Origin: Candidatus Heimdallarchaeota archaeon
Lineage (GTDB): Archaea; Asgardarchaeota; Heimdallarchaeia; Hodarchaeales; Hodarchaeaceae
Reading direction: 5' to 3'
Assembly (NCBI GenBank): GCA_011364965.1
Contig: RDOB01000010.1
Coordinates: 1 to 59,656, forward strand
Length of the DNA stretch: 59,656 nucleotides
Positions 5,022 to 42,965 of the stretch are shown in pieces. A model generated the notes under the pieces. That model saw nothing but the letters and a program-made list of their open reading frames with translations. It did not search any database and was not told the origin of the DNA. Numbering within the stretch: position 1 is the stretch's first letter; every line of letters starts with the position of its first letter. A program made the position numbers and the translations under genes.

Positions 5022-5194
5022 AAGACGCTCCTCTTGGGGTTTTAATTAAGATTAACAGCATTAAGGAACGATGCGGGAAATGTAATAAGGCTCTCACTCT
5101 CGAAACATACCTTGATCCACTCACAGAGAAGCGTTCTTATAGAATTTTATGTGATAACTGTAAGATTATTCTAGCTCCGGGTGATGATTTTTGA
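5018..5194 (+). CDS. 58-aa zinc-ribbon protein (not in the ORF track)
   Basis: MKDAPLGVLIKINSIKERCGKCNKALTLETYLDPLTEKRSYRILCDNCKIILAPGDDF; two CxxC; ATGA overlap with the upstream stop and TTGA overlap with the downstream start. Confidence 0.8.
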   Translation: MKDAPLGVLIKINSIKERCGKCNKALTLETYLDPLTEKRSYRILCDNCKIILAPGDDF

Positions 5195-5799: not shown

Positions 5800-5921
5800 A
5801 GCTTATCGAGGATTTACTTCCCGACTTAATAACCACTATTTTGTATTTATATTGATTATACCTACTGAAGGATTTTTATATGGGAATTTCTAGTTATACC
5901 TGCGTCAAATAACGAGGTTAA

Positions 5922-7586
5922 GTGAGATTCAGGATGAAAGATTACTCAAATTTATCTAAATGGGGAAACAGAGTCTCTGAACATACGAAACTGACTCCAC
6001 ATCTGCGGAAGTTCTTTTTCACTAGCATAGGAATGGATCCAGATGGGGGAAAAAAAGAATATGTCCATCATGCAGTCTTGGAGGATTATAAAAAAGAACC
6101 TAATCTTCCAAAGGAGTTCTTAGATTCTTTAAACAATTTTCTTAATCATGATCAAGTTATAGATGATTTTGGGATCAGACTCCAGAATTCTTTTGGACGA
6201 TCTTATCTTGATCTTCTACAAACCAGGCTCATGGATTTTCCAGCAGTAGCAGAACTTGTATTATATCCAAATAATCATGAAGATGTTAAAAAGATAGTAC
6301 AAAAAGCTAATGAATATAATATAAGAGTTTTTACAAGAGCTGGAGGTTCAAGCGTCACCCAAGGAGTTCAGCCTATTAAAGGATCAATTGTGGTCAACAT
6401 TACACGTATGAACAAAATTCTATCAATAAATTATGAGTCTCTGTGGGTAAAAACCCAAACTGGAATCATGGGACCAAAATTGGAGGAAGAATTGAACCAA
6501 GTTGGCTTAACACTTGGACATTTCCCCCAATCGTGGGAATTTTCTTGTGTCGGAGGATGGGTAGTTACTAGAGGAGCAGGTCAAAATTCTACATTATATG
6601 GAAAAATTGAAGATATGGTGATGGGAGGTAAGATGGTCACGGGAGCTGGAGACACTCTTGTTGTAAAAACTGCACCTGCTCGCGCTACTGGCCCTGAACT
6701 CACTCATATTATTTCAGGATCAGAAGGTGCTTTGGGAATTTTAACTGAAGTAGTCTTACGCGTGTGGAAACAACCAAAAATCATGAAAACATCTGGGTTC
6801 TTATTTAAATCCTTTGAAGACGGATTACTTGCGTTTCGTGAGTTGGTACAGGCAGGATATCGACCTGCAGTACTAAGATTGACAGATGCTGAAGAAACTA
6901 ATTATAATATCCAAGCATCTAATTTGATGAAAGATCCCCCATCAGAATCCTTTCTCACTAAGCATCTTCTTAATTTTCTTTTGAAGAGAGGTTATACTTA
7001 TGATTCGAGGGCAATGGCGATTTTGATTTTTGAAGGGGAAGCTGACCTAGTAAAACTTACCCAGAAAAAAGCGAAATTTTTTGCTAAACAGCATGGGGGA
7101 TTTAATTTATATTCAATTCCAGGAAAAAAATGGATAGAAACCCGATTTGAAACTCCTTTCTTACGAGATCCAATGGTTGATTATGGTATGTTAGTTGAGA
7201 CTTTTGAGACTAGTACAACTTGGGATAATGTAACCCATGTCTATAATAGAATTCGAGAAGCCCTTCAGTCAGAATCATCAGTAATTATGTCTCATGGAAG
7301 TCATTTTTATCAAAATGGATTAAACTTATACTTTACTCTCATTACCGCCCAAGAATCTGGAAATGAGATCGCACAGTTTTATCGGATTAAACAAAAAGTA
7401 TTAGATACGTTAATTGAATGTAATGCAACAATCAGTCATCATCACGGAATAGGAAGCTCATTTCGCCCATGGCTTTCTAAAGAAATAGGAATGGAAGGAA
7501 TAAAAATACTAAAATCGTTAAAAGAATCCTTGGATCCTAATCATATCATGAACCCAGGCGTTTTAATAACTCAAGAAGGTAATTAA
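5922..7586 (+). CDS. FAD-linked oxidase, alkyl-dihydroxyacetonephosphate synthase (AGPS/ADAS)-like
   Basis: GGSSV, GHFPQSWEFSCVGGWVVTRGAGQ..YGKIEDMV, GSEGALGI, ISHHHGIG, LDPNHIMNPG. Confidence 0.85.
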   Translation: MRFRMKDYSNLSKWGNRVSEHTKLTPHLRKFFFTSIGMDPDGGKKEYVHHAVLEDYKKEPNLPKEFLDSLNNFLNHDQVIDDFGIRLQNSFGRSYLDLLQTRLMDFPAVAELVLYPNNHEDVKKIVQKANEYNIRVFTRAGGSSVTQGVQPIKGSIVVNITRMNKILSINYESLWVKTQTGIMGPKLEEELNQVGLTLGHFPQSWEFSCVGGWVVTRGAGQNSTLYGKIEDMVMGGKMVTGAGDTLVVKTAPARATGPELTHIISGSEGALGILTEVVLRVWKQPKIMKTSGFLFKSFEDGLLAFRELVQAGYRPAVLRLTDAEETNYNIQASNLMKDPPSESFLTKHLLNFLLKRGYTYDSRAMAILIFEGEADLVKLTQKKAKFFAKQHGGFNLYSIPGKKWIETRFETPFLRDPMVDYGMLVETFETSTTWDNVTHVYNRIREALQSESSVIMSHGSHFYQNGLNLYFTLITAQESGNEIAQFYRIKQKVLDTLIECNATISHHHGIGSSFRPWLSKEIGMEGIKILKSLKESLDPNHIMNPGVLITQEGN

Positions 7587-7592
7587 ACTCGA

Positions 7593-9236
7593 TCATGCCT
7601 TCCACACAAGCGAATTTTTGTAAATTTGAATTTCTTCTTGTAACTTTTTCGTATCCCAGCCTAAAATCCTTGCCATTTGATTTGCTACAGTGTCAACGCA
7701 ATCTAGACCTTGATTAGCCGATAATTGGATCTGAGTTCTTCTCAACATAATATCATTAAGTGTTCGAGCTTTTTCTATTTCAATCATATAGTTTATTTCT
7801 GCTAAAATATATGACCGGTTTTCTGCGATTCGTTTACTTAATTCAGGAGACTCATTAATCTTTTCACAAATACGTGAGTAGTTTTTCCCATATACTAGGA
7901 GATGGGTTGCCACATCTTGGGGTAATTCGTGACGAATAGTCATATTTTCGATTGCAACAATAGTCCAATCCTCCCAATTTTTTCTCGAAGTAGAAACCCA
8001 GCCAAAAAGGGGTACTTTATCTGTAACACATTTATTTTTCTTATTAAAGAATTTATCGAGACGATCCACTAATTCTTTTGCCATAGCACGATAGGTTGTA
8101 TATTTACCTCCAGCTATTGCCATTACATTGGGCTTAAGTTCATAGATTTCATGTTTTCGAGAAACATCACTCTCAGATTTGGCATCAACAGGAAGAATTA
8201 AAGGTCTTAGACCTGAATAAGCACTCAATATATCCTCTTCCTTCAGAGTACCTGGAAATATCGTATTTATTGCCTGAATTAGGTACTCGATATCCTCTGT
8301 TTGAACAGGAATATAATCGAAATCTCCAGTATAATCAGTATCAGTTGTCCCTATCAGCAAATATTCGCCAAATGGAACCAAAAAAATGATTCTTCCATCT
8401 TCTACTGGAGCTACAACTGCGTAATCTTTATTATAGAATCTTTGTGTTATTATATGAATCCCTTTTGTTGGTCGAACTCGTTGGGTAGCTGTGGAATCAA
8501 AATTCTTAATTAATTCATCTGTCCAGTGTCCACAGCTTAATACGATGGATTTAGCCTTGATTTGAAATTCGATATTATTATCAAGCTTATCTCTTACAAG
8601 TACAGAATACATATTATCACTATTCTCCTTGAATGAACTAGCTTCGCAGTAGTTCATCACAACTGCGCCATGCTCTTCTGCAGATAGAATAATATCAAGT
8701 GTTAATCTAGCGTCATCCATTTGTCCATCCCCATAAAGTGCTACACCCTGAAAATTTTCTTCACGTACAGGTGAAGGTAAAAGAGCCCTAGCTTTCTCTG
8801 GTCCAATTATTTTGTGAAATGTATAGTTCCTAAAGTTTGCTAATATATCGTACAACCACATGGCTAATCGAATATTAAACTTATTTGTTTTATAATCTGA
8901 ATGAAGTGGAATTAGAAATTTTAAAGGACGGGTTGCGTGTGGAGCCATCTCTAGTATTTTTTTACGTTCAATCGATGCTTCTCTAACAAGTCCAAACTCT
9001 TTTTGCGCAACATATCTAAGACCTGCATGTACTAACTTTGAAGAACCACTACTTGTTCCAGATGCAAAGTCATTTTTCTCAATCAAACCAACCGAATACC
9101 CCCGGAGTATTGCATCGCGAGCTATACCAGCGCCAGTTATACCCCCGCCAACTATTAAAACATCAAAAACTTCGCTCTTTAACCTATAAATCCCTTCATT
9201 GCGAGTTTCCATTGCATTTTGCTGTTCTAATGACAT
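7593..9236 (-). CDS. glpD: FAD-dependent glycerol-3-phosphate dehydrogenase
   Basis: GGGITGAG, DFASGTSSGSSKLVHAGLRY, DGQMDDAR, GTTD, GLRPL, GGKYTTYR, RRTQ; ATG at 9236 preferred over 9257. Confidence 0.93.
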   Translation of the reverse strand: MSLEQQNAMETRNEGIYRLKSEVFDVLIVGGGITGAGIARDAILRGYSVGLIEKNDFASGTSSGSSKLVHAGLRYVAQKEFGLVREASIERKKILEMAPHATRPLKFLIPLHSDYKTNKFNIRLAMWLYDILANFRNYTFHKIIGPEKARALLPSPVREENFQGVALYGDGQMDDARLTLDIILSAEEHGAVVMNYCEASSFKENSDNMYSVLVRDKLDNNIEFQIKAKSIVLSCGHWTDELIKNFDSTATQRVRPTKGIHIITQRFYNKDYAVVAPVEDGRIIFLVPFGEYLLIGTTDTDYTGDFDYIPVQTEDIEYLIQAINTIFPGTLKEEDILSAYSGLRPLILPVDAKSESDVSRKHEIYELKPNVMAIAGGKYTTYRAMAKELVDRLDKFFNKKNKCVTDKVPLFGWVSTSRKNWEDWTIVAIENMTIRHELPQDVATHLLVYGKNYSRICEKINESPELSKRIAENRSYILAEINYMIEIEKARTLNDIMLRRTQIQLSANQGLDCVDTVANQMARILGWDTKKLQEEIQIYKNSLVWKA

Positions 9237-9256
9237 TATTATCACATATCTTCTCA

Positions 9257-10009
9257 TTACATCAATTTAATATTGTAAAAATCCAGTGCATTCTTTGTAG
9301 TAACTTTTTCAACTTCCTTGAAGGTTATTTCTTTTAATTTTGCTATTTCATTAATTGCATATTTGACATTTGCAGGTTCATTTCTTTGGCCCATTATTGG
9401 ACTAAGATAAGGAGTGTCTGTTTCAACTACTAAATTGTCTAAAGGGGCAGTTCGTGCTATCTTTCGGTGATTTTTTCTTTTAATTACAGCTGTTGGTATT
9501 GATATCAACCACCCAAGGTCAATGACTCTCTTTACTTCCTCAAGATTCCCAGCGAAACAATGCATAAGTACGGGAACTCTTACATTTTCTTCTAGAATAT
9601 CAATACAATCTGTTTCTGCTTTTCGAGAATGGATGACAATAGGTTTTTTTATCTCATTGGCAAGGTTAATGTATTCAATGAAGTGCTGTTTCTGTTTATC
9701 CTGCCAAGAGGGATCATGGACCCAATAATGATCGAGTCCAACTTCTCCTACCGCGATAAGAGAGGTTACTTCACGAAGGGATTGTATGGTCTCCTTAGTC
9801 TTCATCGTTTTAATTCTAGAGGGAGCTGCTCCCAAAGTTGTGAAGATATAATTAGGAAAACGCTTTTCAAGCTCCAAAGCTGGCTTAAGATGGGCTGGTT
9901 CAATAGCTGAATTAACTATAGCTCGAACACCAGCATTTTGAGCATTTTGAACTAATTCGATTATATTATCAACAAAATCTGGTAGTAAATGGGCATGAGA
10001 GTCAATCAT
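9257..10009 (-). CDS. tatD: TatD-family hydrolase
   Basis: DSHAH, GEVGLD, HSR, HCF, ETDTPY, RNEP. Confidence 0.95.
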   Translation of the reverse strand: MIDSHAHLLPDFVDNIIELVQNAQNAGVRAIVNSAIEPAHLKPALELEKRFPNYIFTTLGAAPSRIKTMKTKETIQSLREVTSLIAVGEVGLDHYWVHDPSWQDKQKQHFIEYINLANEIKKPIVIHSRKAETDCIDILEENVRVPVLMHCFAGNLEEVKRVIDLGWLISIPTAVIKRKNHRKIARTAPLDNLVVETDTPYLSPIMGQRNEPANVKYAINEIAKLKEITFKEVEKVTTKNALDFYNIKLM

Positions 10010-10102
10010 TAATAAGAACCGTCTGTTTCATGTGTAAGTGCTTGATTTAGCGAATAAAAAAAAAATCTTTTGAATAATAGGAAATTATTGAGGTTTATCT
10101 TC

Positions 10103-11293
10103 TTGAAAATTATAGATTTGGTACGTGAAAATCAGAAAAGCCGGTTAAACTCTCTAAATATGATTGCATCAGAGAATGTGTTGAGTCCTAATGTTAAAGA
10201 AGCCTTGGCCACTTTAAATGCACGATACCATGCAGAATTTTATGCTGGAACAGAAATTTTTCAGACAATATACAATGAAACATCAGAACTGGCAAAGAAA
10301 GTGTTTAAATCTAATGAAGCATTAATTAGTCCATTATCTGGTAATATGGCGGTTATAGCAACACTATTTGCTTATTCAAGTCCAGGAGATAAGGTTGCTA
10401 TTCTACCACTAGTTCCAGCAGGAGGGTATCCATTTCGTCTAGAATACTTCAATAGAAAACGAATAGATATTCCATTTAAAATTGAAGATTTCAATATAGA
10501 TGAAAATAAATGCATCGAAATATTGGAAAAGGAAAAACCACGTTTAGTTTTTCTTGGTTCATCCTTAATTCTATTTCCTCAACCTATTAGCTCAATTACA
10601 GAAATAGTTCATAGTTATGGGGGGAAAGTCGCGTATGATGGTTCCCATGTACTGGGTTTAATAGCAGGAGGGCAATTCCAAGCCCCATTGAACGATCAAG
10701 TCGATTTATTAATTGGATCTACACATAAATCCTTTCCAGGACCTCAGGGAGGGATTATTCTCTCCAATAATCCTATTGAACCTGAATTAGAGGAAACAAT
10801 TGGAATAGATCCTCTCAAAGGCATTGTATTAGTAGATAATATTCATAATTCCCGAATTGCAGCATTAGGAGTAGCACTTGAGGAATTTCTATCTTATGGA
10901 AAAGACTATGCAAAACAGGTAGTAGCCAACTCTAAAGCACTTGCTTATTCTCTCGATTCTAATAATATTGAGCTTTTAGGAAAAATAAAGGGATTTTCAG
11001 AATCACACCAGGTTCTAATGAAAATCAGGAATTTTAGTGAAGGTGCAGAACTTCGTGACCTGTTATTTAGATTTAGAATTATTACTGACGCTGCTATGCG
11101 GTTTGGTACCGCAGAATTGACAAGACGCGGATTTGAAGAAGATCAAATGAGAAAAGTGGGAGAAATAATTGCAGAAATCCTAAATAATGCTGCAAAATTT
11201 AAATCTTCATCTGTTGATGGGAATTTGCATACAATTCATCAAAAGATCGAAATATTGATTAATCAGCAAATGGAGGTGACTAGTCAAGAATAA
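10103..11293 (+). CDS. glyA: Serine hydroxymethyltransferase
   Basis: IASEN, YDGSHVLGLIAGG, STHKSFPGPQGG (PLP Lys), RFGTAELTRRG; TTG at 10103 follows a GAGGT SD. Confidence 0.92.
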   Translation: MKIIDLVRENQKSRLNSLNMIASENVLSPNVKEALATLNARYHAEFYAGTEIFQTIYNETSELAKKVFKSNEALISPLSGNMAVIATLFAYSSPGDKVAILPLVPAGGYPFRLEYFNRKRIDIPFKIEDFNIDENKCIEILEKEKPRLVFLGSSLILFPQPISSITEIVHSYGGKVAYDGSHVLGLIAGGQFQAPLNDQVDLLIGSTHKSFPGPQGGIILSNNPIEPELEETIGIDPLKGIVLVDNIHNSRIAALGVALEEFLSYGKDYAKQVVANSKALAYSLDSNNIELLGKIKGFSESHQVLMKIRNFSEGAELRDLLFRFRIITDAAMRFGTAELTRRGFEEDQMRKVGEIIAEILNNAAKFKSSSVDGNLHTIHQKIEILINQQMEVTSQE

Positions 11294-30937: not shown

Positions 30938-32155
30938 CTACCGAATGATTATATCAAGAATTTTTAAAAATGGTATTGCTAGATTCAGTTTCCAAGGAAC
31001 GTTACAATGCACTATGGAATCAATATCTGATGGACGTAAGCGATTCATATACCATTGAAGACGACTATCTTTTCCTGAAGCAATTTGATCAAAGAAGTTT
31101 CTCACTTTATATGATTTTGTAAGCATCTCTAATAACTGCTTTTTCCAGAGATCTTCGTAGATTGACAAGGAGGAGTTATCTCTCAACTTCTTAGATATAA
31201 CATCTGCAGCTATTCTACCAGCTACCATTGAAGGAGGAATACCACCTCCCACACTTGATACTACTTGACACGCTGCATCTCCTATTAGTATTGTTTGCTT
31301 TTCTTCATTAACGGTCTTTTCAAAAGGTACTCCTACAGGGACTGCGCCTGCAATAGTATGTTTAATAGTTGCATTTTTTAGAAACGTACTCGTGATAGGA
31401 TGGTTTTCAATCACATTCTTCAATGCTATGGAAACATTCATCTTTCCTTTAAGCATAGGTAATCTGATTCCAGCTCCAACATTAGCTGTAGTCTCGCTTT
31501 TAGGAATAATCCATGAATAAGCGCCTGGCGCATATTTTTCCCCGAAGTACATTTGAATGTTTGTTGAGTCGTAGTTTTCTGAATCAATATTAGTCATAAA
31601 ATGCTGTTTAACAATGGCATAGTTGTCAGAAGATCTTTTTTCCGCCAACCCAGTCCACGAAGCAACTCTAGAATTTACTCCATCACAACCAATTATTATT
31701 TTAGGGTGAATATCAATCAGTTCCTTTCCTTCTTTTGAAACATGAACAATGTGGCCATTCATATTAATTGCACAGGCTGAAGACCAGACTTTTCCTCCTT
31801 TATCAACCCCTTGTTTGATTAAATCTGCATTCCAGTCTCCTCTATTAATTGTGTATCCATCAAAAGGAGTTGTAATTATTTTTCCCTCGGGAGAGAAAAA
31901 AGAAATTCGATTTGTATGTGTACTTACATAATCCTCCTTAAAGGTAAAGATCTTGTCCACTTCGGGTACTTTAGGTATTAATCGTTTCATTTCCTCTGGA
32001 GAAGGTATAAACTCCCCACATTGAACAGGAAAACCTGGTCTTGATTTATGATCGATAGCTAAGATCAAGAATTCGGATCCAACGCGCTTTGTCAATTCAG
32101 AAAAGACTGTTGCTCCTGCAGGCCCTAATCCTATAATTAGAACATCAACATACAA
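30938..32155 (-). CDS. Geranylgeranyl reductase family flavoprotein
   Basis: GLGPAG, PVQCGE, DGVNS, PGAYSWIIPK, ANVG, GDAA, GGGI. Confidence 0.9.
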   Translation of the reverse strand: MYVDVLIIGLGPAGATVFSELTKRVGSEFLILAIDHKSRPGFPVQCGEFIPSPEEMKRLIPKVPEVDKIFTFKEDYVSTHTNRISFFSPEGKIITTPFDGYTINRGDWNADLIKQGVDKGGKVWSSACAINMNGHIVHVSKEGKELIDIHPKIIIGCDGVNSRVASWTGLAEKRSSDNYAIVKQHFMTNIDSENYDSTNIQMYFGEKYAPGAYSWIIPKSETTANVGAGIRLPMLKGKMNVSIALKNVIENHPITSTFLKNATIKHTIAGAVPVGVPFEKTVNEEKQTILIGDAACQVVSSVGGGIPPSMVAGRIAADVISKKLRDNSSLSIYEDLWKKQLLEMLTKSYKVRNFFDQIASGKDSRLQWYMNRLRPSDIDSIVHCNVPWKLNLAIPFLKILDIIIR

Positions 32156-32174: not shown

Positions 32175-33722
32175 CTAAGATCCGAATAAATGTTTAGCTG
32201 AATTCAACGCAAAATCAATAAAGGGGGTCGGGAAGATCCCGATCACAATTATCAGAAGTACAGCACCTGCTATTACTACCTGATAAGACAGTGGTATACT
32301 AAATGGTGTGACACGATCCACTGGAACCGCTGAAACTGCTTCTTCTTCAATCGGTTTATCTATAATCATGAGCTTTATGACCCTGATATAATAAAATATC
32401 GAAATGGCACTGTTAATAATTCCAATAACAGCTAACCAGATTAAATCTGCATATATTGCAGCAAAAAACAGGAGAAGTTTTGAAACAAAACCTGCTAATG
32501 GTGGGACTCCCATCAAGCTCAAGAGGGCTATTGACATTCCAAACGCTAGCCAGGGATGCTTTTTTCTCAACCCAGCATAATCCGATATTCTCTCAGACTT
32601 GAAAGAATATGCAACCACTATTACAACTGTAAACGCCACAATTTTCATTAATGCATGAGTTAATACATGTAATTCTGCAGATGCTACAGCAAATTCCTGA
32701 GCAGTGAAACTCAAATTAAAATCAAAGGATGGACTTGGGGTGCCAGCTACAGCAGCTAAAGCAATGAGAAGATAACCAGCATGAGCAATACTTGAATATG
32801 CGAGCATTCTTTTGATGTTTTCTTGAACAAGAGCAACAACATTCCCTAGAGTCATCGTCAAGACAGCAAGAAGCGCAAATAGAATACCCCAAATGGCATC
32901 TAGTTCGATTAAGCTACCAACAATTAAACGAAAAACAGCTGCAAATCCCATAGCTTTTGATCCTGCAGCTAAAAAAGTAGTTATTGTCGTTGGAGTTCCT
33001 TGATATACATCCACAGCCCATGCATGGAATGGTACGGCTGCAATTTTGTAACCAAACCCAACTAGTAGAAACATAAGTGCAAGAAGATGCAGTGGAGTAT
33101 AATTGGTAGTTAAAGCAAATTCAGTTATTACTGCTTCAAAACTTGTTGTTCCAACTATTCCATAAATCAATGAAATTCCAAATAATATGAAGGCTGAAGA
33201 CATAGCACCAATTAAGAAGAATTTCAATGCACTTTCACTTGTTTCAGGCCTAGATTTTTGATAAGCAGCTAACGCATATGCAGGAAGGCTTCCCAATTCC
33301 CATGATATAAAGAGGGTTAGTAAATCATTTGATGCAGCTACGAGCATCATTCCTATTGTAGAAAACATGAGAAGGGCATAATATACTCCCAATGTTTTCT
33401 CTGAACCCATATAATCAATGCTGGAAGCAGCTACGAATAGTAGTACCAAAATAAAGATCATGGCAAAGAATTTATAGAAATCATCTATTACTAATAAACC
33501 AGATGCTGCTGTAACGTCTGTAATATCAGAAGGATTTCCAAATAAGTGAATGATATCAGATCCGATGCTTGTTGTTATGCTAAATAAAGCCAGAAGACTA
33601 CCAAGTATTGTAATAATACCAAGTAACCACTTTCCTCTTCCAATAGCTTCGATTACCAAACATAACCCAATTGTTCCAAAGATCACCAAAAATGGCATGA
33701 GAATTGTCGCGATATCACTCAT
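32175..33722 (-). CDS. nuoN: Complex I subunit N
   Basis: SWELGSLPAY, ESALKFF, KIAAVPFHAW, KRMLAYSSIAHAGY, GVPPLAGF. Confidence 0.95.
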   Translation of the reverse strand: MSDIATILMPFLVIFGTIGLCLVIEAIGRGKWLLGIITILGSLLALFSITTSIGSDIIHLFGNPSDITDVTAASGLLVIDDFYKFFAMIFILVLLFVAASSIDYMGSEKTLGVYYALLMFSTIGMMLVAASNDLLTLFISWELGSLPAYALAAYQKSRPETSESALKFFLIGAMSSAFILFGISLIYGIVGTTSFEAVITEFALTTNYTPLHLLALMFLLVGFGYKIAAVPFHAWAVDVYQGTPTTITTFLAAGSKAMGFAAVFRLIVGSLIELDAIWGILFALLAVLTMTLGNVVALVQENIKRMLAYSSIAHAGYLLIALAAVAGTPSPSFDFNLSFTAQEFAVASAELHVLTHALMKIVAFTVVIVVAYSFKSERISDYAGLRKKHPWLAFGMSIALLSLMGVPPLAGFVSKLLLFFAAIYADLIWLAVIGIINSAISIFYYIRVIKLMIIDKPIEEEAVSAVPVDRVTPFSIPLSYQVVIAGAVLLIIVIGIFPTPFIDFALNSAKHLFGS

Positions 33723-33743: not shown

Positions 33744-35342
33744 CTAGATAAATTGTGTTCCAAAGAAATTTGTTGCTGTTGTCATTAAATCTAATAAGAG
33801 AGAAGGAAAAATTCCCAATAATAACACGAAAAAGCACAAAAATGCAATTGTAAGATATTGTGATAAATGGCTTATATCGTGAGCATGTTCTAATTCAGGA
33901 TTAACATCTCCAAATACAGTTCGTTGTAGCATCCATAGATAATAAGCTGCAGTGAAAATAATTCCTAGTACACCAATCATTGCAAGAAAAAGGCCAGTCA
34001 CTCCTATATTAAGACCTGGAATTACTTGACCTTCCCAATTAAATAATGCTACAAAGGCCAAAAGCTCAGACCAAAATCCAGCTAAACCAGGTAATCCAGC
34101 ACTTGCAAAAGATCCGAATACTAATACACCTGCAGTCAATGGCATCTTCTTCGCGAAACCCTTCAATTTGGGAATATCACGAGTATGTGCAGAATGGCCA
34201 ATCGTCCCGGCTAAAAAGAACATTAATGGAGAAATAATACCATGTGCAATCTGCATATACATTGCACCAGCGAATCCTTCAGGAGTTTGTGTGGCAACAC
34301 CGAGTAAAACAATGCCCATGTGGCCAACAGAGGAATATGCAACAAGAGATTTCATGTCAACTTGACGAAGTGCAACCCATGAACCATACAAGAGGGAAAT
34401 AAGCCCAATTATAGCTATTAACCATGCAAATTCAGCCATTGCTTCAGGAAGCAACCAACCACTTACTCGAAGTAGTCCATAACCACCCATTTTCAGTAAA
34501 AGCCCCGCAAGTATCATTGAACCAGGTGTTGGGGCTTCAACATGCGCTAATGGTAACCAAGTATGGAAAGGAACACTGGGTACTTTCACAATAAATCCAA
34601 ATAGCAATGCAAGGAAAACTAAGAGGATAAAGGGACCAGTTCCAAAATCTAATTGGCTTAAAATATTAAATGAAAAGCTACCGCCTAATGTTCCTCGGAT
34701 ATTAGCTGACTCTAGCCATATACCGATAATTCCTAGTAACATTACTAGAGATGCAACATGTGTATAAATAAAGAAATAAATGGCCGCATACTCGCGTTTT
34801 TCACCACCCCAGATCCCTATAAGGAAAAACATTGGTACTAAGACAAGTTCCCAAGCAATATAGAAGATGATGAAATCTGTTGCAACAAAAGTCCCGATTA
34901 CTCCGGTTTCTAAAAGCATGAGCATAGCATAATATGCTGGTTGTCGATTTTCTATGTCTTTGAACGATGCCAAGACAGCTACTAGGAAGATGAAACCAGC
35001 CAATAACACTAATGGAAGACTTAGCCCATCAATGCCAAGGGAATAATTCATTCCTACAGCATCAATCCAAACTATTTCTTCTACAAGTGTAAATCCGCCA
35101 GAGGCTAGCGTGGTTCTATCTGCATGTAAGCTTGCGGGAAGAAAGGAACTATTTTCAAACATTAACCATGCAAAGACCGCGAGAATCATAACTAGGCCGC
35201 TTATAATTAAGGCAAAATATTTAGAAAACTCATTCCGTATTCTACCCACTAACCATGTTGGAAATGCTGCCAAAATAGGCAACAGAAAGATTAGAGTTAG
35301 GATTCCTATTTCTAGGTCACCGAAACTAAATAGTGTTACCAT
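33744..35342 (-). CDS. nuoM: Complex I subunit M
   Basis: GIDGLS, WELVLVPM, PFHTWLPLAHVEAP, LLKMGGYG, AYSSVGHMG, GLPGLAGFWSE. Confidence 0.95.
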   Translation of the reverse strand: MVTLFSFGDLEIGILTLIFLLPILAAFPTWLVGRIRNEFSKYFALIISGLVMILAVFAWLMFENSSFLPASLHADRTTLASGGFTLVEEIVWIDAVGMNYSLGIDGLSLPLVLLAGFIFLVAVLASFKDIENRQPAYYAMLMLLETGVIGTFVATDFIIFYIAWELVLVPMFFLIGIWGGEKREYAAIYFFIYTHVASLVMLLGIIGIWLESANIRGTLGGSFSFNILSQLDFGTGPFILLVFLALLFGFIVKVPSVPFHTWLPLAHVEAPTPGSMILAGLLLKMGGYGLLRVSGWLLPEAMAEFAWLIAIIGLISLLYGSWVALRQVDMKSLVAYSSVGHMGIVLLGVATQTPEGFAGAMYMQIAHGIISPLMFFLAGTIGHSAHTRDIPKLKGFAKKMPLTAGVLVFGSFASAGLPGLAGFWSELLAFVALFNWEGQVIPGLNIGVTGLFLAMIGVLGIIFTAAYYLWMLQRTVFGDVNPELEHAHDISHLSQYLTIAFLCFFVLLLGIFPSLLLDLMTTATNFFGTQFI

Positions 35343-35365: not shown

Positions 35366-37612
35366 TTAGAGGGGAGATACCCCTGCAATGATGATCATTA
35401 CTAATATTATTGAAATTGCTCCCACGAGAGTGTATAAAGCATAATTCTCAACTACCCCAGTCTGAATTCTTCTTAAATACGTTCCAGATTTCATCACATT
35501 ACGAGCAGTTCTTCGAATAATTCCATGATCTATTATTCGTTCGTCAGTTTGTTTCGCGAGCCCACATAATGCGACTGAAGCTCTGGCTGTAAGTTGTACA
35601 ATTCTATCAATAACTTGTTCATCCCACCATTTTGAAACTCCACAGAGCTCATATCCAATTAGACCTACAGTTCGTACTGCTTGGTCAAAAATATTTCTTT
35701 CAATCCAAAACATACCAGCACAGTAGCCAGAGTCCACAGCATAGACAAATTTGAGATATAAATCATCGATATAGTATCCTTTCTCTAAAATTCGTTGTAA
35801 ACCCCGTCCTAAAGGAGAAATCTTAATAGATCGTATAATGGATCGAAAAACTCTTTGTGAATTAGTGATGATGTCTGGGTTTTTCACCTCAAATTTAAAT
35901 GAAGGGTCTCCTTTATGAAAGATTGCAATAGCATTCGAGCGTGGATAATAAAGCATATAAGCTAATCCTATTCCTAAAATAGCAAGTAAAATTGATGTTA
36001 AACCTACCATCCAGTTGAAGGGCAATGCATGAACCCCAGGTTCAAGCCATCCAACCAATAGATGCTCAAATGATAAATCTGGTATAAATATTCCAATTGT
36101 GAAGTAAGCTGTCAAAATTAGAGAAAGAATTGCTAAAACCCATAGAGGGATAGTCATCCAACGATCAGATTCATGAATATGATGACCTTGCAATCGATTA
36201 CTTCCTAAAAATACTAAAAACCATAGTCTAAAGATATAAAATGCAGTTAAAAAAGCAGTAATTACAGTTGACAACCAAACAAGCAAGATAAGTTGATCGT
36301 GAAGAAGTGAAAAACCAGAATGCAATCCTCGTTCGAGTGCATGTAAAATAATTGCATCTTTACTGAAAAAGCCATTCCCTAATCCCGCTAAAGATAATGA
36401 ACCAATCAACATAACTTTCCATGTATCTGGCATTTTTTGTTTTAATCCACCCATTTCCCTTATATCTTGAGTCCCAGATCCGTGAATCACCGAACCAGCA
36501 GATAAGAAAAGTAGAGCTTTAAAAATTCCATGATTGATTATATGGAATACAGCTACTGCCATTCCTCCCACTCCCAAACCGACAGTCATATAACCCAACT
36601 GACTAATAGTAGAATATGCCAATATACCCTTAATATCAGTTTGTACCAAGGCAATTGTTCCTGATAAAATTGCAGTAAAGCCTCCAATTAGTGCTATAAT
36701 CAATAACGCATTCCCATTTCCTACTTCATTTGCATGTTCAAATATAAAATAACTTCTTGCAATTAGAAAAATACCAGCTTTAACCATAGTAGCAGAATGG
36801 ATTAAGCAGCTCACGGTTGTTGGACCTGCCATAGCATCGGGGAGCCAAACATGTAAAGGAAATTGAGCTGATTTTCCCACCGCCCCTCCAAAGATCAAAA
36901 CAGCTATGAGTACAAATAACATTGGATCTATATGCAATAACCCCTCTTCCAATAGGTGTCGAATTTCCAAGAAATCAAATGTATGAGCTTCTAAGTATAA
37001 TAGAATAATTCCTACAAAAAGGAATACATCTCCCACCTTCGTGGTGAGAAACGCCTTTTTAGCAGCGGACGCAGGATGGGGTTGTCCTTCAGGAACAGTT
37101 TCTTTATCATAAAAATATCCGATGAGTAAATAGGAACAGACTCCCATGATTTCCCAGAAGAGAAATAATTGAACCATATTAGGAGAAAAGCACAATCCAA
37201 GCATTGCTGCAGCAAACATGTTTATTTCAGCATAATAACGAACTGAACCCTCATGAGCCATGTAGCTTCTACTATAAATAACAACAAGGAAAGCTACAAG
37301 AGCAACCATTAAACTAACTAAAGAGGAGAGGGGATCGACAAGGATACCAATTTCAATTTCAATATTGCCAACTGAAAGCCATTCAAAGGCATTCTTGTAT
37401 GTTACATCTTCAACAGGATTTCCTAGGAATAGATGGAGTAATAACTCGCCTGATACAATTAATGTTAAAATAAAACTTACTCCTAATGAAACCAATGCAA
37501 TTAAATTACTGTGTGCTTTCTTATCGATATATTTACCAAAAAAGATAGTAAAAAATGCAGCTAGAATGGGAATAAGGGGAATTAAAAACGCAAGATCACT
37601 AAATATTAACAC
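35366..37612 (-). CDS. nuoL: Complex I subunit L with an elongated lateral helix
   Basis: WEIMGVCSY, GKSAQFPLHVWLPDAMAGPT, HSATMV, AYSTISQLG, QTG; GTG at 37612 after GGAGAG. Confidence 0.95.
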   Translation of the reverse strand: MLIFSDLAFLIPLIPILAAFFTIFFGKYIDKKAHSNLIALVSLGVSFILTLIVSGELLLHLFLGNPVEDVTYKNAFEWLSVGNIEIEIGILVDPLSSLVSLMVALVAFLVVIYSRSYMAHEGSVRYYAEINMFAAAMLGLCFSPNMVQLFLFWEIMGVCSYLLIGYFYDKETVPEGQPHPASAAKKAFLTTKVGDVFLFVGIILLYLEAHTFDFLEIRHLLEEGLLHIDPMLFVLIAVLIFGGAVGKSAQFPLHVWLPDAMAGPTTVSCLIHSATMVKAGIFLIARSYFIFEHANEVGNGNALLIIALIGGFTAILSGTIALVQTDIKGILAYSTISQLGYMTVGLGVGGMAVAVFHIINHGIFKALLFLSAGSVIHGSGTQDIREMGGLKQKMPDTWKVMLIGSLSLAGLGNGFFSKDAIILHALERGLHSGFSLLHDQLILLVWLSTVITAFLTAFYIFRLWFLVFLGSNRLQGHHIHESDRWMTIPLWVLAILSLILTAYFTIGIFIPDLSFEHLLVGWLEPGVHALPFNWMVGLTSILLAILGIGLAYMLYYPRSNAIAIFHKGDPSFKFEVKNPDIITNSQRVFRSIIRSIKISPLGRGLQRILEKGYYIDDLYLKFVYAVDSGYCAGMFWIERNIFDQAVRTVGLIGYELCGVSKWWDEQVIDRIVQLTARASVALCGLAKQTDERIIDHGIIRRTARNVMKSGTYLRRIQTGVVENYALYTLVGAISIILVMIIIAGVSPL

Positions 37613-37631: not shown

Positions 37632-37943
37632 TCAACCTCGTAATTCAACGAAATCAGTTGCTTCAACTGTTCCGTGCATTCGATTTATAGCTAAAATAAT
37701 CCCAAGCCCGACTGCAGCCTCTGCAGCAGCTATGGCAATACTGATAATCACTGCTACATGTCCTGTAACAAAACTAGTGTCATTGTACAAGGCAAATATA
37801 GCAAAATTAATGTTTGCTGAATTTAGCATGATTTCTATTGCAATCAACATTCGTATTGCTGATTGGGATTTAATAAATCCAGCAAAACCTACAAGAAATA
37901 ATAATAGGGCGAGAACTATAAATATCCAAGGTGCAATATTCAT
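37632..37943 (-). CDS. nuoK: Complex I subunit K
   Basis: IEIMLNSANIN, IAAAEAAVGL. Confidence 0.95.
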   Translation of the reverse strand: MNIAPWIFIVLALLLFLVGFAGFIKSQSAIRMLIAIEIMLNSANINFAIFALYNDTSFVTGHVAVIISIAIAAAEAAVGLGIILAINRMHGTVEATDFVELRG

Positions 37944-38503
37944 AGATCTTCAACCTCCTTTTTTACCAAGTATACTGCTCCAAGCATGGTCGCTAATAGC
38001 AAAATACCGAGTATGAGGATCGTTCCACCATGAACAGTAAATAATTGGATGGATAAAGATTCAATAAGTAAAGCAGGGTCAATTGGTCGTATAGATTCTG
38101 TTTGGCCAATCCAAAAAGTGGCACTTACCTGTAAAATGATGTAAACAGCAATGAAAAATAGGATAAATGCACCTGCAAAACTTAAACGCCAATCCAGTAG
38201 TTTATATTTTGTTGGTTTTTCAAACATCGAGTCTTTACCTGATAAAGAAATTGCAAATAGCATTAAAACCGTGATACCACCAGCGTAAACAATCAATTGA
38301 ACCACTAATAATAATGCAGACTCTGCATATAGGAGGAAAATCATTGCTATTCCCAGCAAACAAAAGATTAACCATAAAACAGCATGATACACACTTTTTA
38401 CTGAAACAGCGAGATATGCTGACACCACAGTATAAATACTCAAGATTAAGAAAACTAAAAATTCTAAAGTCTCAAATAATATTGGGGGAAAAAGATAAGC
38501 CAT
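37940..38503 (-). CDS. nuoJ: Complex I subunit J
   Basis: QLIVYAGGITVLMLFA; five TM segments. Confidence 0.93.
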   Translation of the reverse strand: MAYLFPPILFETLEFLVFLILSIYTVVSAYLAVSVKSVYHAVLWLIFCLLGIAMIFLLYAESALLLVVQLIVYAGGITVLMLFAISLSGKDSMFEKPTKYKLLDWRLSFAGAFILFFIAVYIILQVSATFWIGQTESIRPIDPALLIESLSIQLFTVHGGTILILGILLLATMLGAVYLVKKEVEDL

Positions 38504-38506
38504 AAT

Positions 38507-39133
38507 CTAGTCCTCCGTCTGCTCCTCAGTCTTTTCCACTTTAGGAAGTGGTTCCTCATCAATTTTTCCATATTTCTTCTCATACTCTTTCCATTGCTTC
38601 TGATATTCTTCTGGATAATATAATTGGTACACTTTATAGAGATCACGATAAGAAAAATGGAGATTTTCCTTTAGTGAAGTAGCAGCATCAAATCCAGGAG
38701 TATGATGAAGAGCATCAAAATTGCACGCCTCAACACAAAAACCGCAATACAAGCACCTTCCAATAAAAATCTCTGGGTGCTCTAATGGTCTATCTTTCTT
38801 CCAATGGGGAGGAGCTGGTTCAACAATCTTCATTTCAATGCACTTATTGGGACAAATCCGTGCACAAGCTTTACATCCCACACAATTCAAAGCATTAAGT
38901 GCTATCAATCCACGAGCATTAGGAGATATATGGGGAGTATTTTCAAAAACATCAGAGAAGGTTAAGTCACGATCTAAGATAGTTTGCCCTTTTTTTGCCA
39001 ATTCTTCAGGAAAATAGACAGTGTTTCTGTTTCTACGATCTCCATCAGGCATCGTAATTGGTTTTTTGAGTAGGAGCTTTCCTACAAAGGTTAATGGCCT
39101 TGTTATTAAAAAACTCGGAATTATACGTACCAT
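38507..39133 (-). CDS. nuoI: Complex I subunit I (2x[4Fe-4S])
   Basis: CVGCKACARICP and CLYCGFCVEAC; ATG at 39133. Confidence 0.93.
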   Translation of the reverse strand: MVRIIPSFLITRPLTFVGKLLLKKPITMPDGDRRNRNTVYFPEELAKKGQTILDRDLTFSDVFENTPHISPNARGLIALNALNCVGCKACARICPNKCIEMKIVEPAPPHWKKDRPLEHPEIFIGRCLYCGFCVEACNFDALHHTPGFDAATSLKENLHFSYRDLYKVYQLYYPEEYQKQWKEYEKKYGKIDEEPLPKVEKTEEQTED

Positions 39134-39134
39134 T

Positions 39135-40343
39135 TTAATACACCCCAAATAAGGAAGGATTTGAAATAAATAGAATTACAACGACAATAATGTTCAAAAC
39201 AGCAAGTGGAATGAGCCTCTTCCAACCAATGTTTAACAATTGGTCTACCCGAACTCTTGGTAATGCTCCTCGTACCCATATGAAGAGAAATATAAACAAC
39301 CATAGTTTTACTATGAAAATAATGTTCGGTAATAGAGGTAAATTATCAATCCATTCTCTCGGGATGAAAGGTAGGTAAGATCCAGCCCAGAATATTGAAA
39401 CACCAATAAAAGCTCCGATCAACAATATGAAATATTCTGTAGCCATTGACATCATGTATCGAAAACCTGTAAGCTCAGTACGCCATCCCATGACTAATTC
39501 AGCTTCAGCTTCAGGAATATCAAATGGAATTCTTTCAGTTTCAGCTGCTAGCGCAACCATAAATACAATAAATCCAATTGGCATCAATATAGCGAATGGA
39601 AGATGGAAAGGGGTTAATGTTTGCTGAGCTGCTATGTCAACTAATGAGAAGGAATTTGTTACTATGACCACAGCGCCAACAGAAAAGATTAAAGGAATCT
39701 CATATGATATCAATTGTGCTGCAGACCTAAATGCTCCAATTAATGAATATTTATTATTCGATGACCATCCAGTTATAAGAACTCCAACTGGATATAGGGA
39801 GAACAGTGCAAATATTAACAAAAATCCAACAGCGGGATCTGCTACTACAGCACTTCCCCCTAAGGGGAGTAAACCTCCTAAAATGAATGGGGGAGCAACA
39901 ACAAACGCGAAGTAACCAATGTTAAACGGAAACTTATCAGCTTTTTCAGGAACTATATCTTCCTTTGAAAAGAATTTCAAGAATTCAGCTATATTTTGTA
40001 ACAATCCAAACTTCCAAGTTCTGCCAAAGAAGTGTCCATAATTAAAATCGATAAATGTCGGTCCACGTCTAGCCATCATTCGTGCTACTAGCTTCCTCTC
40101 AAACCAAATCAACATTATAGTATTCACTATGAGGAAAATGAGAATGGTAGTCATTTCTAATGTATCTATAAGTGTAGAGCGAATAGAGGGTTGAAATTCG
40201 ACCTCAAAATGAAGGAACTGTTCAGGTTCTGCCAATCCAATAAGTCCTAGTACTCCACCAATTGTTTTAATAAGAGGAGTAAGAATCCCTGCCACTAATT
40301 GTAATAAAAAGTCAACCAGACCATCATATATTCCATAACCCAT
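39135..40343 (-). CDS. nuoH: Complex I subunit H
   Basis: ERKL..RM..R.GP, SNNKYS, RSAAQLISYE, RIPFDIPEAEAEL, PRVRVDQ; ATG at 40343 after AGGTGA. Confidence 0.95.
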   Translation of the reverse strand: MGYGIYDGLVDFLLQLVAGILTPLIKTIGGVLGLIGLAEPEQFLHFEVEFQPSIRSTLIDTLEMTTILIFLIVNTIMLIWFERKLVARMMARRGPTFIDFNYGHFFGRTWKFGLLQNIAEFLKFFSKEDIVPEKADKFPFNIGYFAFVVAPPFILGGLLPLGGSAVVADPAVGFLLIFALFSLYPVGVLITGWSSNNKYSLIGAFRSAAQLISYEIPLIFSVGAVVIVTNSFSLVDIAAQQTLTPFHLPFAILMPIGFIVFMVALAAETERIPFDIPEAEAELVMGWRTELTGFRYMMSMATEYFILLIGAFIGVSIFWAGSYLPFIPREWIDNLPLLPNIIFIVKLWLFIFLFIWVRGALPRVRVDQLLNIGWKRLIPLAVLNIIVVVILFISNPSLFGVY

Positions 40344-40352
40344 TGGTTTCAC

Positions 40353-41441
40353 CTACCTGTCAATTTCTCCCATGCATAAATCCATACTCGCGACTATTGG
40401 AGGAATATCAGCTACTTTGGCCCCTTTCAATAAATGAGCTGATGCATAGAGATTATTATAAGCAGGGGACCTTATCTTTATCCGATATGGGATTCTATCA
40501 TCATTTCCTACAATGTAATACCCTGCTTCACCTCGAGGATCCTCTGTTCTGAAATAGATTTCTCCTTTGGGTAATTTTCTTGGAGCCTTCTTACTGATCT
40601 CACCCTCTTTAGGTATTTGATCTAAAGCTTGACGAATAATCTGCGTTGATTGTTGCATTTCCTCCATTCGAATCTGGAAACGAGCATAACAATCTCCAGC
40701 TTTCTGTACTGGAATCTTGAAATCAAGTTCATCGTATACAAGATATGGTTCAATTTTACGAAGATCTCCTTGCACTCCAGAAGCTCGAAGAACTGGCCCC
40801 GTAGTTCCCAAATCAAATGCATTTGCTTTACTTAAAATTCCTACTTTTTTACTACGCATCATAAATACTTTGGAATCATCACACATATCTTTATACTCAT
40901 GAATTTTTTTATCTAAATAATATGTTAATCTACGCGCATCTTCTAAAAATCCTTTGGGAAAATCATGCTTTAATCCGCCTGGTCGGAAAAAATTGTACAT
41001 CATTCTCGACCCAGTTACGTGTTCTAGTATATCAAGAACATACTCTCTCTCACGATAAGGAATTACAAGCATAGTTAAAACTCCCAAATCCCCTGCATAT
41101 GCAGAAAGCCATGTGAAATGGGATGCAATCCTTTGAAGCTCCAAAAGAATAACACGCATATACTGGACCCGCTTACTTACCTCTAAATCTAATAATTTCT
41201 CAATTGCCATTATGTACGTTCCTTCCCAAGACATTGCGGACACATAACAAAGACGATCTGCTAAAGGTTGAAAAACATCATAAGGTCGAGATTCAGCCAT
41301 TTTTTCGATCATTCGGAAAATGTAACCAATCATTATTTCTGAATCAATTACCTTCTCTCCGGCTGTTCGAACCTTCAATGTCCATAAACCATGGTTAACT
41401 GGATGTTGTGGGCCCATATGAATATACATTTGTTCACTCAT
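40353..41441 (-). CDS. nuoD: Complex I subunit D (quinone-binding; no complete NiFe ligand set)
   Basis: GPQHPVNHG, DRLCY, ELQRIASH, EDPRGE, DLCMGEIDR; ATG at 41441 after AGGAG. Confidence 0.93.
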   Translation of the reverse strand: MSEQMYIHMGPQHPVNHGLWTLKVRTAGEKVIDSEIMIGYIFRMIEKMAESRPYDVFQPLADRLCYVSAMSWEGTYIMAIEKLLDLEVSKRVQYMRVILLELQRIASHFTWLSAYAGDLGVLTMLVIPYREREYVLDILEHVTGSRMMYNFFRPGGLKHDFPKGFLEDARRLTYYLDKKIHEYKDMCDDSKVFMMRSKKVGILSKANAFDLGTTGPVLRASGVQGDLRKIEPYLVYDELDFKIPVQKAGDCYARFQIRMEEMQQSTQIIRQALDQIPKEGEISKKAPRKLPKGEIYFRTEDPRGEAGYYIVGNDDRIPYRIKIRSPAYNNLYASAHLLKGAKVADIPPIVASMDLCMGEIDR

Positions 41442-41454
41442 TTCGTGAATTCTC

Positions 41455-41964
41455 CTATTTTTTGGTAGAGTTATATGAATAGGGTTTATCGGGTAATTTA
41501 TACGCTCTACGCATGGGATACAGTTCTGAGATATGCTTGTGATCCATTTCATCCCATTCTTCAGGGAGAAGTAGTCGTTTTAGATTAGGATGGTTTTCAA
41601 TCTTAATGCCAAATAAATCATAAATCTCCCTTTCATGCCAATCAGCTGAAGTATATAGATTAATTATGGAGGGAATGCTTGGATTATCTCTATCTTCTAA
41701 CTTAACGTGAACTTGGATTAATGTGGAGTCTCCATCCCATCGATCAAAGAAATAAATGACTTCAAAATGCGTTTCCCAATCTAATCCAGAAATTGCCTCA
41801 CAAGAAGGAAATACTAACTTATCACGAATGTACTGCACAATTTCAAGCAAATCGTGAGGGCTTACATGTACTTTAATTCGATTAGTACCATAAATTGATG
41901 ATTCGTGGAGTTTATTACCAAAGTGTTTCTTAATTTCTAATAAATGAAACTGAGCAGAAGTCAT
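41455..41964 (-). CDS. nuoC: Complex I subunit C
   Basis: ADWHEREIYDLFGI..ENHP.LKRLLLP. Confidence 0.95.
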   Translation of the reverse strand: MTSAQFHLLEIKKHFGNKLHESSIYGTNRIKVHVSPHDLLEIVQYIRDKLVFPSCEAISGLDWETHFEVIYFFDRWDGDSTLIQVHVKLEDRDNPSIPSIINLYTSADWHEREIYDLFGIKIENHPNLKRLLLPEEWDEMDHKHISELYPMRRAYKLPDKPYSYNSTKK

Positions 41965-42593
41965 TTTTTCTCCTCCTGAGGTAAGCTTTTCATCCGTATT
42001 CTATAATCGAATACTGGAGTCTCTCGGTTGTAAAATTCTCGCTCTTCAGACCGAAGAGGTTCAGGCACATAAATTTTATCGGCCTTGATTTTTTCCTGTA
42101 AACGATGAATTCCAGCCCACATCGCTTCAGGACGGGGAGGACACCCTGGAACATATATATCTACTGGAATCACTTGATCTGTTCCTTCAAGTATCGTAGG
42201 GGCTTGCCAAAATGGTCCACCACTGATCGCACACTCTCCTGTTGCAAAAACCCACTTAGGCGCAGGCATTTGATCATAGACATCTCTTAAGCGAGAAGCA
42301 AATTTTACGGATACAGGGCCATTAATCCAAAGGACATCACAATGTCGAGGGCTAGCACGAGCAAGAATTCCAATTCGTTCTGTATCGTATCTGGAGGCCA
42401 TTGTTGCTGCCATTTCTATCGCGCAGCATTTCATTCCTAAAAACACAGGATATATACTACATCTTTGAGCCCAATTTCTTAACCAATTGATCATTGTTGC
42501 AACAAAGTTCCTACTTGTTGCTAAAACCACATTGGGCATTGGTTCATAAATTTCTAGCTTGCCAAGAGCATTTAAATCTTCTAATGACGCCAT
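41961..42593 (-). CDS. nuoB: Complex I subunit B
   Basis: CCAIEM, SPRH, YDQMPAPKWV, GECA.SGG, DIYVPGCPPRPE. Confidence 0.95.
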   Translation of the reverse strand: MASLEDLNALGKLEIYEPMPNVVLATSRNFVATMINWLRNWAQRCSIYPVFLGMKCCAIEMAATMASRYDTERIGILARASPRHCDVLWINGPVSVKFASRLRDVYDQMPAPKWVFATGECAISGGPFWQAPTILEGTDQVIPVDIYVPGCPPRPEAMWAGIHRLQEKIKADKIYVPEPLRSEEREFYNRETPVFDYRIRMKSLPQEEKK

Positions 42594-42596
42594 TCT

Positions 42597-42965
42597 TCAC
42601 ACCCACGACATTGTTCCTTTTTTTATCCAGAAAAATAATCCAGTAAAGAGAAAACCAGCAAAGCCGCCCATCACAATCATCGTTGTATAAACTGGATCAA
42701 ATACTCGAAAAGCATAAGCCCAGAGTAAAAATAATATTGATAGAATGTCGAAAACTACGAAAACAATTGCAAATGTGAAGAATTGAACATTAAACTTGAC
42801 TTGAGCATCCCCGATCGGTTTTTCTCCACACTCATAAGTGGTCGAGGCACGTTTCAAGCGTGGGATATTTGGAGCCATTATATACTGAATAACTTTGATT
42901 GCGATTGGACTTGCTAACCCTGCGACTAGAAAGATCCCCAAATGAGTAATCTCAACATCATACAT
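42597..42965 (-). CDS. nuoA: Complex I subunit A
   Basis: YECGE, FVVFD, three TM segments. Confidence 0.93.
   Translation of the reverse strand: MYDVEITHLGIFLVAGLASPIAIKVIQYIMAPNIPRLKRASTTYECGEKPIGDAQVKFNVQFFTFAIVFVVFDILSILFLLWAYAFRVFDPVYTTMIVMGGFAGFLFTGLFFWIKKGTMSWV

Follow-up and report, generated by a model that had tools for sequence, protein, structure and literature searches.

Does a longer lateral helix in the complex I subunit NuoL imply additional proton pumps? The question is raised by the nuoL gene of a Candidatus Heimdallarchaeota archaeon (assembly GCA_011364965.1), which lies within the 59,656-nucleotide (nt) stretch of contig RDOB01000010.1 analysed here (positions 1 to 59,656, hereafter the window). 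Heimdallarchaeia are the class of Asgard archaea to which the nearest known archaeal relatives of eukaryotes belong. How many protons complex I moves per electron pair, a basic parameter of cell energetics, is set by its number of pump modules. A first-pass annotation of the window had proposed a '3M' complex with extra pumps, based on a NuoL with a triplicated lateral helix next to a single nuoM. We find that the helix has indeed been triplicated and that the genome encodes one NuoL, one NuoM and one NuoN for this complex. With a probability of roughly 0.5, we read the added length as a surplus clamp on an arm of three pumps.

The lateral helix of NuoL grew by tandem duplication

The gene is located between nuoK and nuoM and encodes the Proton_antipo_N and Proton_antipo_M domains (PF00662, E 2.6e-14; PF00361, E 2.6e-70). 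The best match among solved structures in the PDB is the cyanobacterial NdhF 6hum_F (E 6.7e-108), with the NuoL tail aligning to NdhF residues 578-651. Close homologues carry the labels Heimdallarchaeota, Hodarchaeales or Kariarchaeaceae. Canonical NuoL, Nqo12, ND5 and NdhF proteins (E. coli 3rko and 7z7s; T. thermophilus 4he8; T. elongatus 6hum_F) have the same core fold and share the order of transmembrane helix 15 (TM15), lateral helix and TM16, as well as the YxDxLY head motif and the QTG junction. Residues are numbered here from the TTG at 37666, which gives a reading of 766 amino acids (aa) overlapping nuoK by 35 nt. The true start is likely the GTG at 37612, giving 748 aa. A Shine-Dalgarno-like site (AAAGGAGAG) lies 9 nt upstream of this GTG, which fits the consensus N-terminus of the homologues better than the TTG does.

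The head motif YYIDDLY begins at residue 631 (codon 35776) and QTG at residue 735 (codon 35464), with 102 aa from Asp634 to Gln735. Alignments give 49 aa for the same span in T. elongatus NdhF and 46 aa in E. coli NuoL, close to the 48-50 aa and single unit that the first-pass annotation had taken as canonical. The net insertion is therefore 53-56 aa, or about two modules, in line with the two units (~52 aa) and the 102-aa span of the annotation. The three Cys-led 26-aa units that it had recognized between YYIDD and QTG are likewise confirmed, with Cys codons at 35722, 35644 and 35566, exactly 78 nt apart. A further ~32 residues are inserted behind TM15, so that the part of the protein following TM15 exceeds that of canonical NuoL by ~95 aa in total rather than by 52 aa. 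This additional insertion is common to Asgard forms and missing in the aligned sequences of E. coli, P0056 and P0057, and its residues 580-593 are predicted to form a beta-hairpin.

Comparisons among the modules show that the clamp helix was lengthened from one to three modules when its own 26-residue docking module was duplicated in tandem, and that the duplication is old. Profiles built from 48 clade homologues and compared by hhalign match module 1 to module 2 at 33.5 (96% probability) and module 2 to module 3 at 29.6 (95%). A control of 285 other 26-residue windows of NuoL reached at most 16.9 against the modules (mean 6.5). Modules 1 and 3 did not match significantly in the same comparison (score 7.7). 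Residue identity from module to module is low (5/26, 8/26 and 3/26 for the three pairs), and no repeat was detected among the modules at the DNA level, where pairwise identities of 24-33/78 do not exceed chance.

Both the length and the sequence of the clamp are shown by their conservation among homologues to be under purifying selection. The span is exactly 102 aa in 52/52 clade homologues, with full-length proteins totalling 739-775 aa. The mean frequency of the top residue across 48 homologues is 0.76 in module 1, 0.79 in module 2 and 0.89 in module 3, compared to 0.80 for the whole protein and 0.89 for the catalytic core. Every module conserves Cys1, Trp6, Asp/Glu8, Val/Ile11, Asp13, Val16 and Arg17 at like positions. 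The three-module tail is found in 20/21 other genomes of the same GTDB genus and in 0/61 genomes of other genera of the class at that level of similarity.

The secondary structure of an AlphaFold2 model of NuoL (60 sequences; mean predicted local distance difference test, pLDDT, 83; predicted template modelling score 0.82) resolves the C-terminal extension into TM15, an amphipathic lateral helix and TM16. In addition to the elements listed in Table 1, helices are predicted at residues 599-616, 618-628 and 716-734. A single unbroken helix extends over residues 633-697, with pLDDT dropping from 80 to 60 and with modules 1 and 2 lying straight within it, followed by a low-confidence break at 698-715. 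A hairpin in which modules 1 and 2 fold back on each other was considered and is not predicted. Superposed on E. coli NuoL, model residues 23-653 match chain residues 1-561 with a root-mean-square deviation (rmsd) of 2.0 Å (Z 45.5, 550 residues), and on cyanobacterial NdhF the match continues to model residue 674 (chain 623) at an rmsd of 3.0 Å. The lateral helix thus keeps its canonical path up to residues 653 or 674 and then runs on. At 1.5 Å per residue, simple arithmetic has the long helix overshoot the canonical end by ~27 Å and gives a returning helix of ~28 Å. A profile of two modules searched against solved chains matched none of them over more than one module.

The proximal end of the clamp appears to be anchored conventionally. 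Among 60 NuoL-like proteins carrying 0 to 3 modules, G737 never varies and R732, Q735, T736 and Y742 hardly do, and the junction motif and TM16 are kept across all these forms. A complex prediction of the tail (residues 634-766) with NuoN, NuoK and NuoJ scored 0.33, with the best of three controls at 0.00 and also 0.00 when NuoN was replaced. Three runs shared at least 76% of contacts, with partner pLDDT of at least 65. The applied mark is passed by 58/80 solved complexes and 2/110 mismatched pairs, and passes at 0.60 or below comprise just 7 of those 80 complexes plus both passing mismatches. The prediction lends weak support to canonical docking, and the pass may reflect memory of a similar complex that has already been solved. 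An N-terminal extension of NuoH was considered as a second docking site and discarded, the extension being hydrophobic here and not conserved in G010 or G015.

Two relatives of the same genus (G008 and G014) have lost nuoL from the operon except for a 73-aa gene, which comprises QTG, TM16 and the last part of module 3. These stubs differ from each other by a synonymous divergence (dS) of 0.54 with a ratio of non-synonymous to synonymous divergence (dN/dS) of 0.14, both values being drawn from this single pair, which argues for a working gene under purifying selection. The same genomes encode two full nuoL genes in tandem, distant from the other nuo genes, one with three modules and one with two. 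The two-module paralogue equals the three-module one minus exactly one module, via a hybrid of modules 2 and 3.

Pump genes and helix length in the class and beyond

If the helix were an indicator of additional pumps, genes for these might be encoded in the operon or elsewhere. The first-pass annotation held that the operon encodes only L, M and N as antiporter-like subunits, which Pfam corroborates with one M and one N. No second nuoM was found in the window operon or in the clusters at L011, L012 and L028-L030. The annotation offered two alternatives, NuoM inserted several times or unlinked nuoM or mrpD paralogues joining the arm. For the genomes searched, we consider it highly improbable that such paralogues occupy the two extra slots. 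The 87%-complete genome does contain five genes with PF00361, namely L, M and N plus two on another contig. The latter two are part of a complete complex-I-like cluster of the group-4 [NiFe]-hydrogenase type with HycI, HypF and HypC adjoining. The D subunit of this cluster matches the NiFe-hydrogenase N-terminal domain, and its own L' has a span of 22 aa, i.e., zero modules, suited to one partner pump. A closed 4.9-Mb genome of the same genus (G010) encodes a 757-aa NuoL with the identical 102-aa span and has three PF00361 genes in total, L, M and N, so that neither genome revealed a second nuoM outside the operon by PF00361. Among 18 other genomes of the genus searched in the same way no orphan M-type gene was found. 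Seventeen carry L, M and N alone, plus at most the hydrogenase-type genes, and the eighteenth has no PF00361 match. Of the '3M' proposal, the triplicated helix with its two-module insertion is supported; unlinked pump paralogues are not, for the genomes searched.

Two further genomes show irregular clusters. In a single-contig genome (G015), nuoM is shortened to 383 aa (L012:9758-10909, minus strand) with PF00361 covering positions 1-198 only, nuoN (L013:6823-8391, minus strand) lies ~2.6 Mb from the operon, and the three-module nuoL is retained. The membrane arm of this genome is rearranged or damaged. The nuoL of G006 is broken into parts of 621 aa and 131 aa directly ahead of the head motif (L030:7842-9707 and 9741-10136), probably by a frameshift or an assembly error since the near-identical P0012 is intact at 764 aa.

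Part of the class follows a simple rule, in which the number of modules plus two equals the number of pump genes. Zero modules occur with two pump genes in six clusters, one module with three in G022, and two modules with four in G025. G025 is a closed genome from a different family of the class. Its complex-I-like cluster (L014:8594-15042) arranges four antiporter-like genes as M-L-M-N, its NuoL has two modules (span 74 aa), and this Asgard cluster obeys the rule of 2M complexes. The rule is broken in G027 and the actinobacterial P0056, which combine L-M-N with two modules, and in the genus of the window, which combines L-M-N with three. A hidden pump in the gap between nuoL and nuoM of G027 was considered and rejected, as the gap contains only unrelated genes on the opposite strand and a helix-turn-helix regulator.

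The modular growth of the helix is not confined to archaea. A search with the two-module profile against 1.84 billion representatives retrieved 568 proteins at E <=0.001. Across unrelated lineages, the span from Asp to Gln clusters at 22-23, 46-49, 74-77, 101-103, 127 and 153 aa, which corresponds to 23 + 26n with n up to five. Two bacterial loci have three modules and only M and N as partners: P0062 with the order nuoABCDHIJK-L-M-N followed by an ATP synthase operon, and P0114 with K-L-M-N followed by an unrelated gene. Five-module tails with a span of 153 aa are found in P0063, a metagenomic fragment of 271 aa, and in P0120 (338 aa). Four modules of P0063 are nearly identical, which points to a very recent expansion of the 78-nt repeat. 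The comparison with pump genes covers contigs long enough for counting, which P0106, P0193, P0068 and P0143 are not. The first-pass annotation had named free variation in unit number among close homologues at a 1:1:1 stoichiometry as an observation that would speak against extra pumps. At the level of genes such variation is found: two genomes of the genus combine tandem two- and three-module nuoL with just one M and one N, and L-M-N occurs with two modules in a sister family and with three in bacteria.

What the added length may do

We favour a surplus clamp on a three-pump arm because all characterized members of the family known to us have one gene per position, and because many lineages show no coupling between helix length and gene number. 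The enzyme would be built of a single L, M and N, with TM15 on one side and module 3, the QTG junction and TM16 on the other docking as in canonical complex I, beside NuoN, NuoK and NuoJ. In the geometry that we judge most likely, modules 1 and 2 would continue straight past NuoN over NuoK, NuoJ and NuoA, the helix would break at ~698-715, and module 3 would return to bring TM16 to its usual site. The ~80 Å of extra helix would thereby widen the footprint of the strap rather than mark extra pumps, and the ratio of protons to electrons (H+/e-) would stay at the three-pump value. E. coli tolerates most insertions in this helix (PMC3274701). Insertions in the lateral helix (HL) have also been described in NuoL of canonical nuoA-N clusters (10.1101/2021.11.15.468770), hence an insertion alone does not imply an extra pump. 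A variant in which the strap extends to the heel, with TM16 beyond NuoH, is less likely given the canonical junction motif and the stub gene, and impossible for five-module forms.

Several observations weigh against a surplus clamp. A surplus loop would be expected to allow insertions and deletions, yet the span does not vary among the clade homologues. Conservation at like positions of the modules suggests, from sequence, that each has an equivalent and specific partner. The overshoot and return of the helix depend on a low-confidence section (pLDDT 40-60) of a monomer model. Furthermore, helix length tracks the number of pump genes in several clusters of the class (0/2, 1/3 and 2/4), and the span is quantized with a step of ~39 Å, the width of one pump subunit.

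A helix acting as a ruler, whose length sets the number of pumps, would better account for the 26-aa quantum, the fixed length and the like conservation of the modules. Four subunits would then be held between NuoL and the anchor. The two extra slots would be filled by more copies of the single NuoM (or NuoN) product, for instance with NuoM used three times in an L-M-M-M-N arm of five pumps, moving up to 6 H+ per 2 e-. We regard the ruler as less probable than the surplus clamp. Where the pump genes are explicit (six zero-module clusters; G022 and E. coli; G025), module number plus two gives the antiporter-like genes, and the 26-aa quantum recurs in independent lineages. The two- and three-module paralogues differ by exactly one module, both ends of the helix are apparently anchored canonically, and the modelled modules 1 and 2 lie in a straight helix along and beyond the canonical path. 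The same link of length and pump number is stated in papers citing the work on 2M complexes, and for the five-pump cluster of Manganitrophaceae (10.1101/2021.11.15.468770). The proposal meets difficulties with forms of four to five modules and with very recent expansions, which would mean six or seven pumps and by our estimate be hard to drive thermodynamically. Shine-Dalgarno-like sites and start-region folding energies of nuoL, nuoM and nuoN gave no sign of stronger translation of nuoM, in what is a weak test. To our knowledge, every characterized family member has its own gene for each position, and no case is known to us in which one antiporter-like product occupies several positions. A headless complex fed by ferredoxin has more free energy per electron pair than one fed by NADH, which would favour additional pumps. 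A homomeric stage would, in addition, resolve the chicken-and-egg problem of how 2M complexes evolved.

The extra modules might instead serve as a docking platform for a second complex I in a dimer, a different respiratory complex, a membrane protein encoded elsewhere or the lipid surface. Conservation of modules for which the operon encodes no partner is consistent with such a role, as are the five-module forms, which exceed any path along a three-pump arm plus NuoK, NuoJ, NuoA and NuoH. We consider this improbable, as no candidate partner emerged and the sole conserved neighbour is a gene of soluble type resembling geranylgeranyl reductase (GGR) after nuoN. The hydrophobic moment along the tail is moderate throughout and uninformative as to a partner. 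A surplus clamp on three pumps remains our preferred explanation.

The operon in context and its implications

The window encodes an 11-gene operon nuoABCDHIJKLMN on the minus strand, in which Pfam analysis of all eleven genes found no nuoE, nuoF or nuoG. By gene content, this is the operon of a headless 11-subunit complex I of the NDH-1 or Fpo-like type, without NuoEFG, in a Heimdallarchaeia archaeon. Ferredoxin has been proposed as the electron donor of Heimdallarchaeia complexes (preprint 10.1101/2024.07.04.601786). The operon is flanked by a radical S-adenosylmethionine gene and the GGR-like gene. The latter encodes a flavoprotein (30938-32155, minus strand) and starts 19 nt past nuoN on the same strand. 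The gene is also found downstream of nuoN in the closed relative G010 (L011:8781-10013) and may be part of the nuo operon. Coordinates of the nuo genes and of the parts of NuoL are given in Table 1.

Table 1. Features of the nuo operon, parts of NuoL and related loci. Positions are in the window unless a locus is named.
Feature	Position	Strand	Basis
nuoA	42597-42965	-	Pfam
nuoB	41961-42593	-	Pfam
nuoC	41455-41964	-	Pfam
nuoD	40353-41552	-	Pfam
nuoH	39135-40352	-	Pfam
nuoI	38507-39148	-	Pfam
nuoJ	37940-38503	-	Pfam
nuoK	37632-37943	-	Pfam; nuoA-K block 37632..42965
nuoL coding sequence	35366..37612	-	GTG start 37612 likely; open frame reaches TTG 37666
TM15, distal anchor of the lateral helix, residues 552-573	35948..36013	-	AlphaFold2 helix; aligns with the core end in E. 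coli (residue 511) and T. thermophilus (residue 512) NuoL
~32-aa Asgard-specific insertion after TM15, residues 574-610	35837..35947	-	alignment; AlphaFold2 strands 580-583 and 590-593, pLDDT 82-91
Lateral-helix start and head motif including YYIDDLY, residues 611-648	35723..35836	-	aligns with E. coli ~524-556; superposes to model residue 653
Module 1, residues 649-674, extra relative to canonical NuoL	35645..35722	-	Cys spacing, profile match, conservation
Module 2, residues 675-700, extra relative to canonical NuoL	35567..35644	-	profile match; with module 1 in continuous AlphaFold2 helix 633-697
Module 3, residues 701-726, counterpart of the single canonical module	35489..35566	-	aligns to the one module of T. 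elongatus NdhF
Junction motif ending in QTG, residues 727-737	35456..35488	-	near-invariant residues across NuoL-like proteins
TM16, proximal anchor, residues 738-766	35369..35455	-	AlphaFold2 helix 738-763; same piece kept as 73-aa gene in two relatives
nuoM, sole M-type gene	33744..35342	-	PF00361 and PF01059; genome-wide PF00361 count
nuoN	32175..33722	-	PF00361
Hydrogenase-type complex-I-like cluster (A, B, C, D, H, I, split J, K, L' 648 aa, M' 511 aa)	L007:4379-12868 (contig C9 ~354-363 kb)		
73-aa stub genes	L028:11046-11267, L029:9951-10172	-	G008, G014
Tandem nuoL	L026:1747-3915 and 4352-6601; L027:6001-8163 and 8564-10822		G008, G014

One of the closest known parallels is the 2M complex I, for which papers citing the original work report a 26-aa insertion in the lateral helix of NuoL accompanying an extra pump subunit (10.1101/2021.11.15.468770 = PMC9040806; PMC6606698; PMC7117926). 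The insertion has the same quantum and the same site in the helix as here, and many 2M clusters also lack part of the NADH module. In 2M complexes one insertion goes with one extra nuoM. The NuoL of the window has two, and no extra pump gene is present in its operon or anywhere in the closed relative's genome. Complex_I_1 and Complex_I_2 of Ca. Manganitrophaceae also carry an HL insertion in NuoL of standard nuoA-N clusters, and their authors called them possible intermediates toward extra pumps (10.1101/2021.11.15.468770). These complexes are bacterial and, compared by their description only, have one insertion instead of two. Complex_I_3 of the same family, proposed to have five pumps, resembles the window in a clamp lengthened past the usual pump number (10.1101/2021.11.15.468770). 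It encodes all five pumps (two MrpD-like, two NuoM, one NuoN), in contrast to the three genes for the complex in the window genome, and was the only five-pump proposal found in the literature. A literature search found no report of an extended lateral helix in Asgard complex I, and a preprint modelling Asgard Complex I-like clusters does not mention the helix (10.1101/2024.07.04.601786).

In the literature on 2M complexes, a clamp lengthened by 26 aa has been read as a signature of an extra pump. The clade described here has a strictly conserved clamp that is two modules longer, and only three pump genes in its closed genomes. The mismatch of modules and pump genes extends to other archaea and to bacteria, where up to five modules are seen. 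Claims of extra pumps based on annotation need caution if this signature is unreliable. If the helix is a true ruler, a new assembly principle would be at work, with the first homomeric reuse of an antiporter-like subunit and a missing intermediate toward 2M complexes. A five-pump complex I would then exist in the archaeal clade nearest to eukaryotes. Under the same premise, genomes with tandem two- and three-module nuoL could swap NuoL, switching between four- and five-pump forms and thus changing H+/e-.

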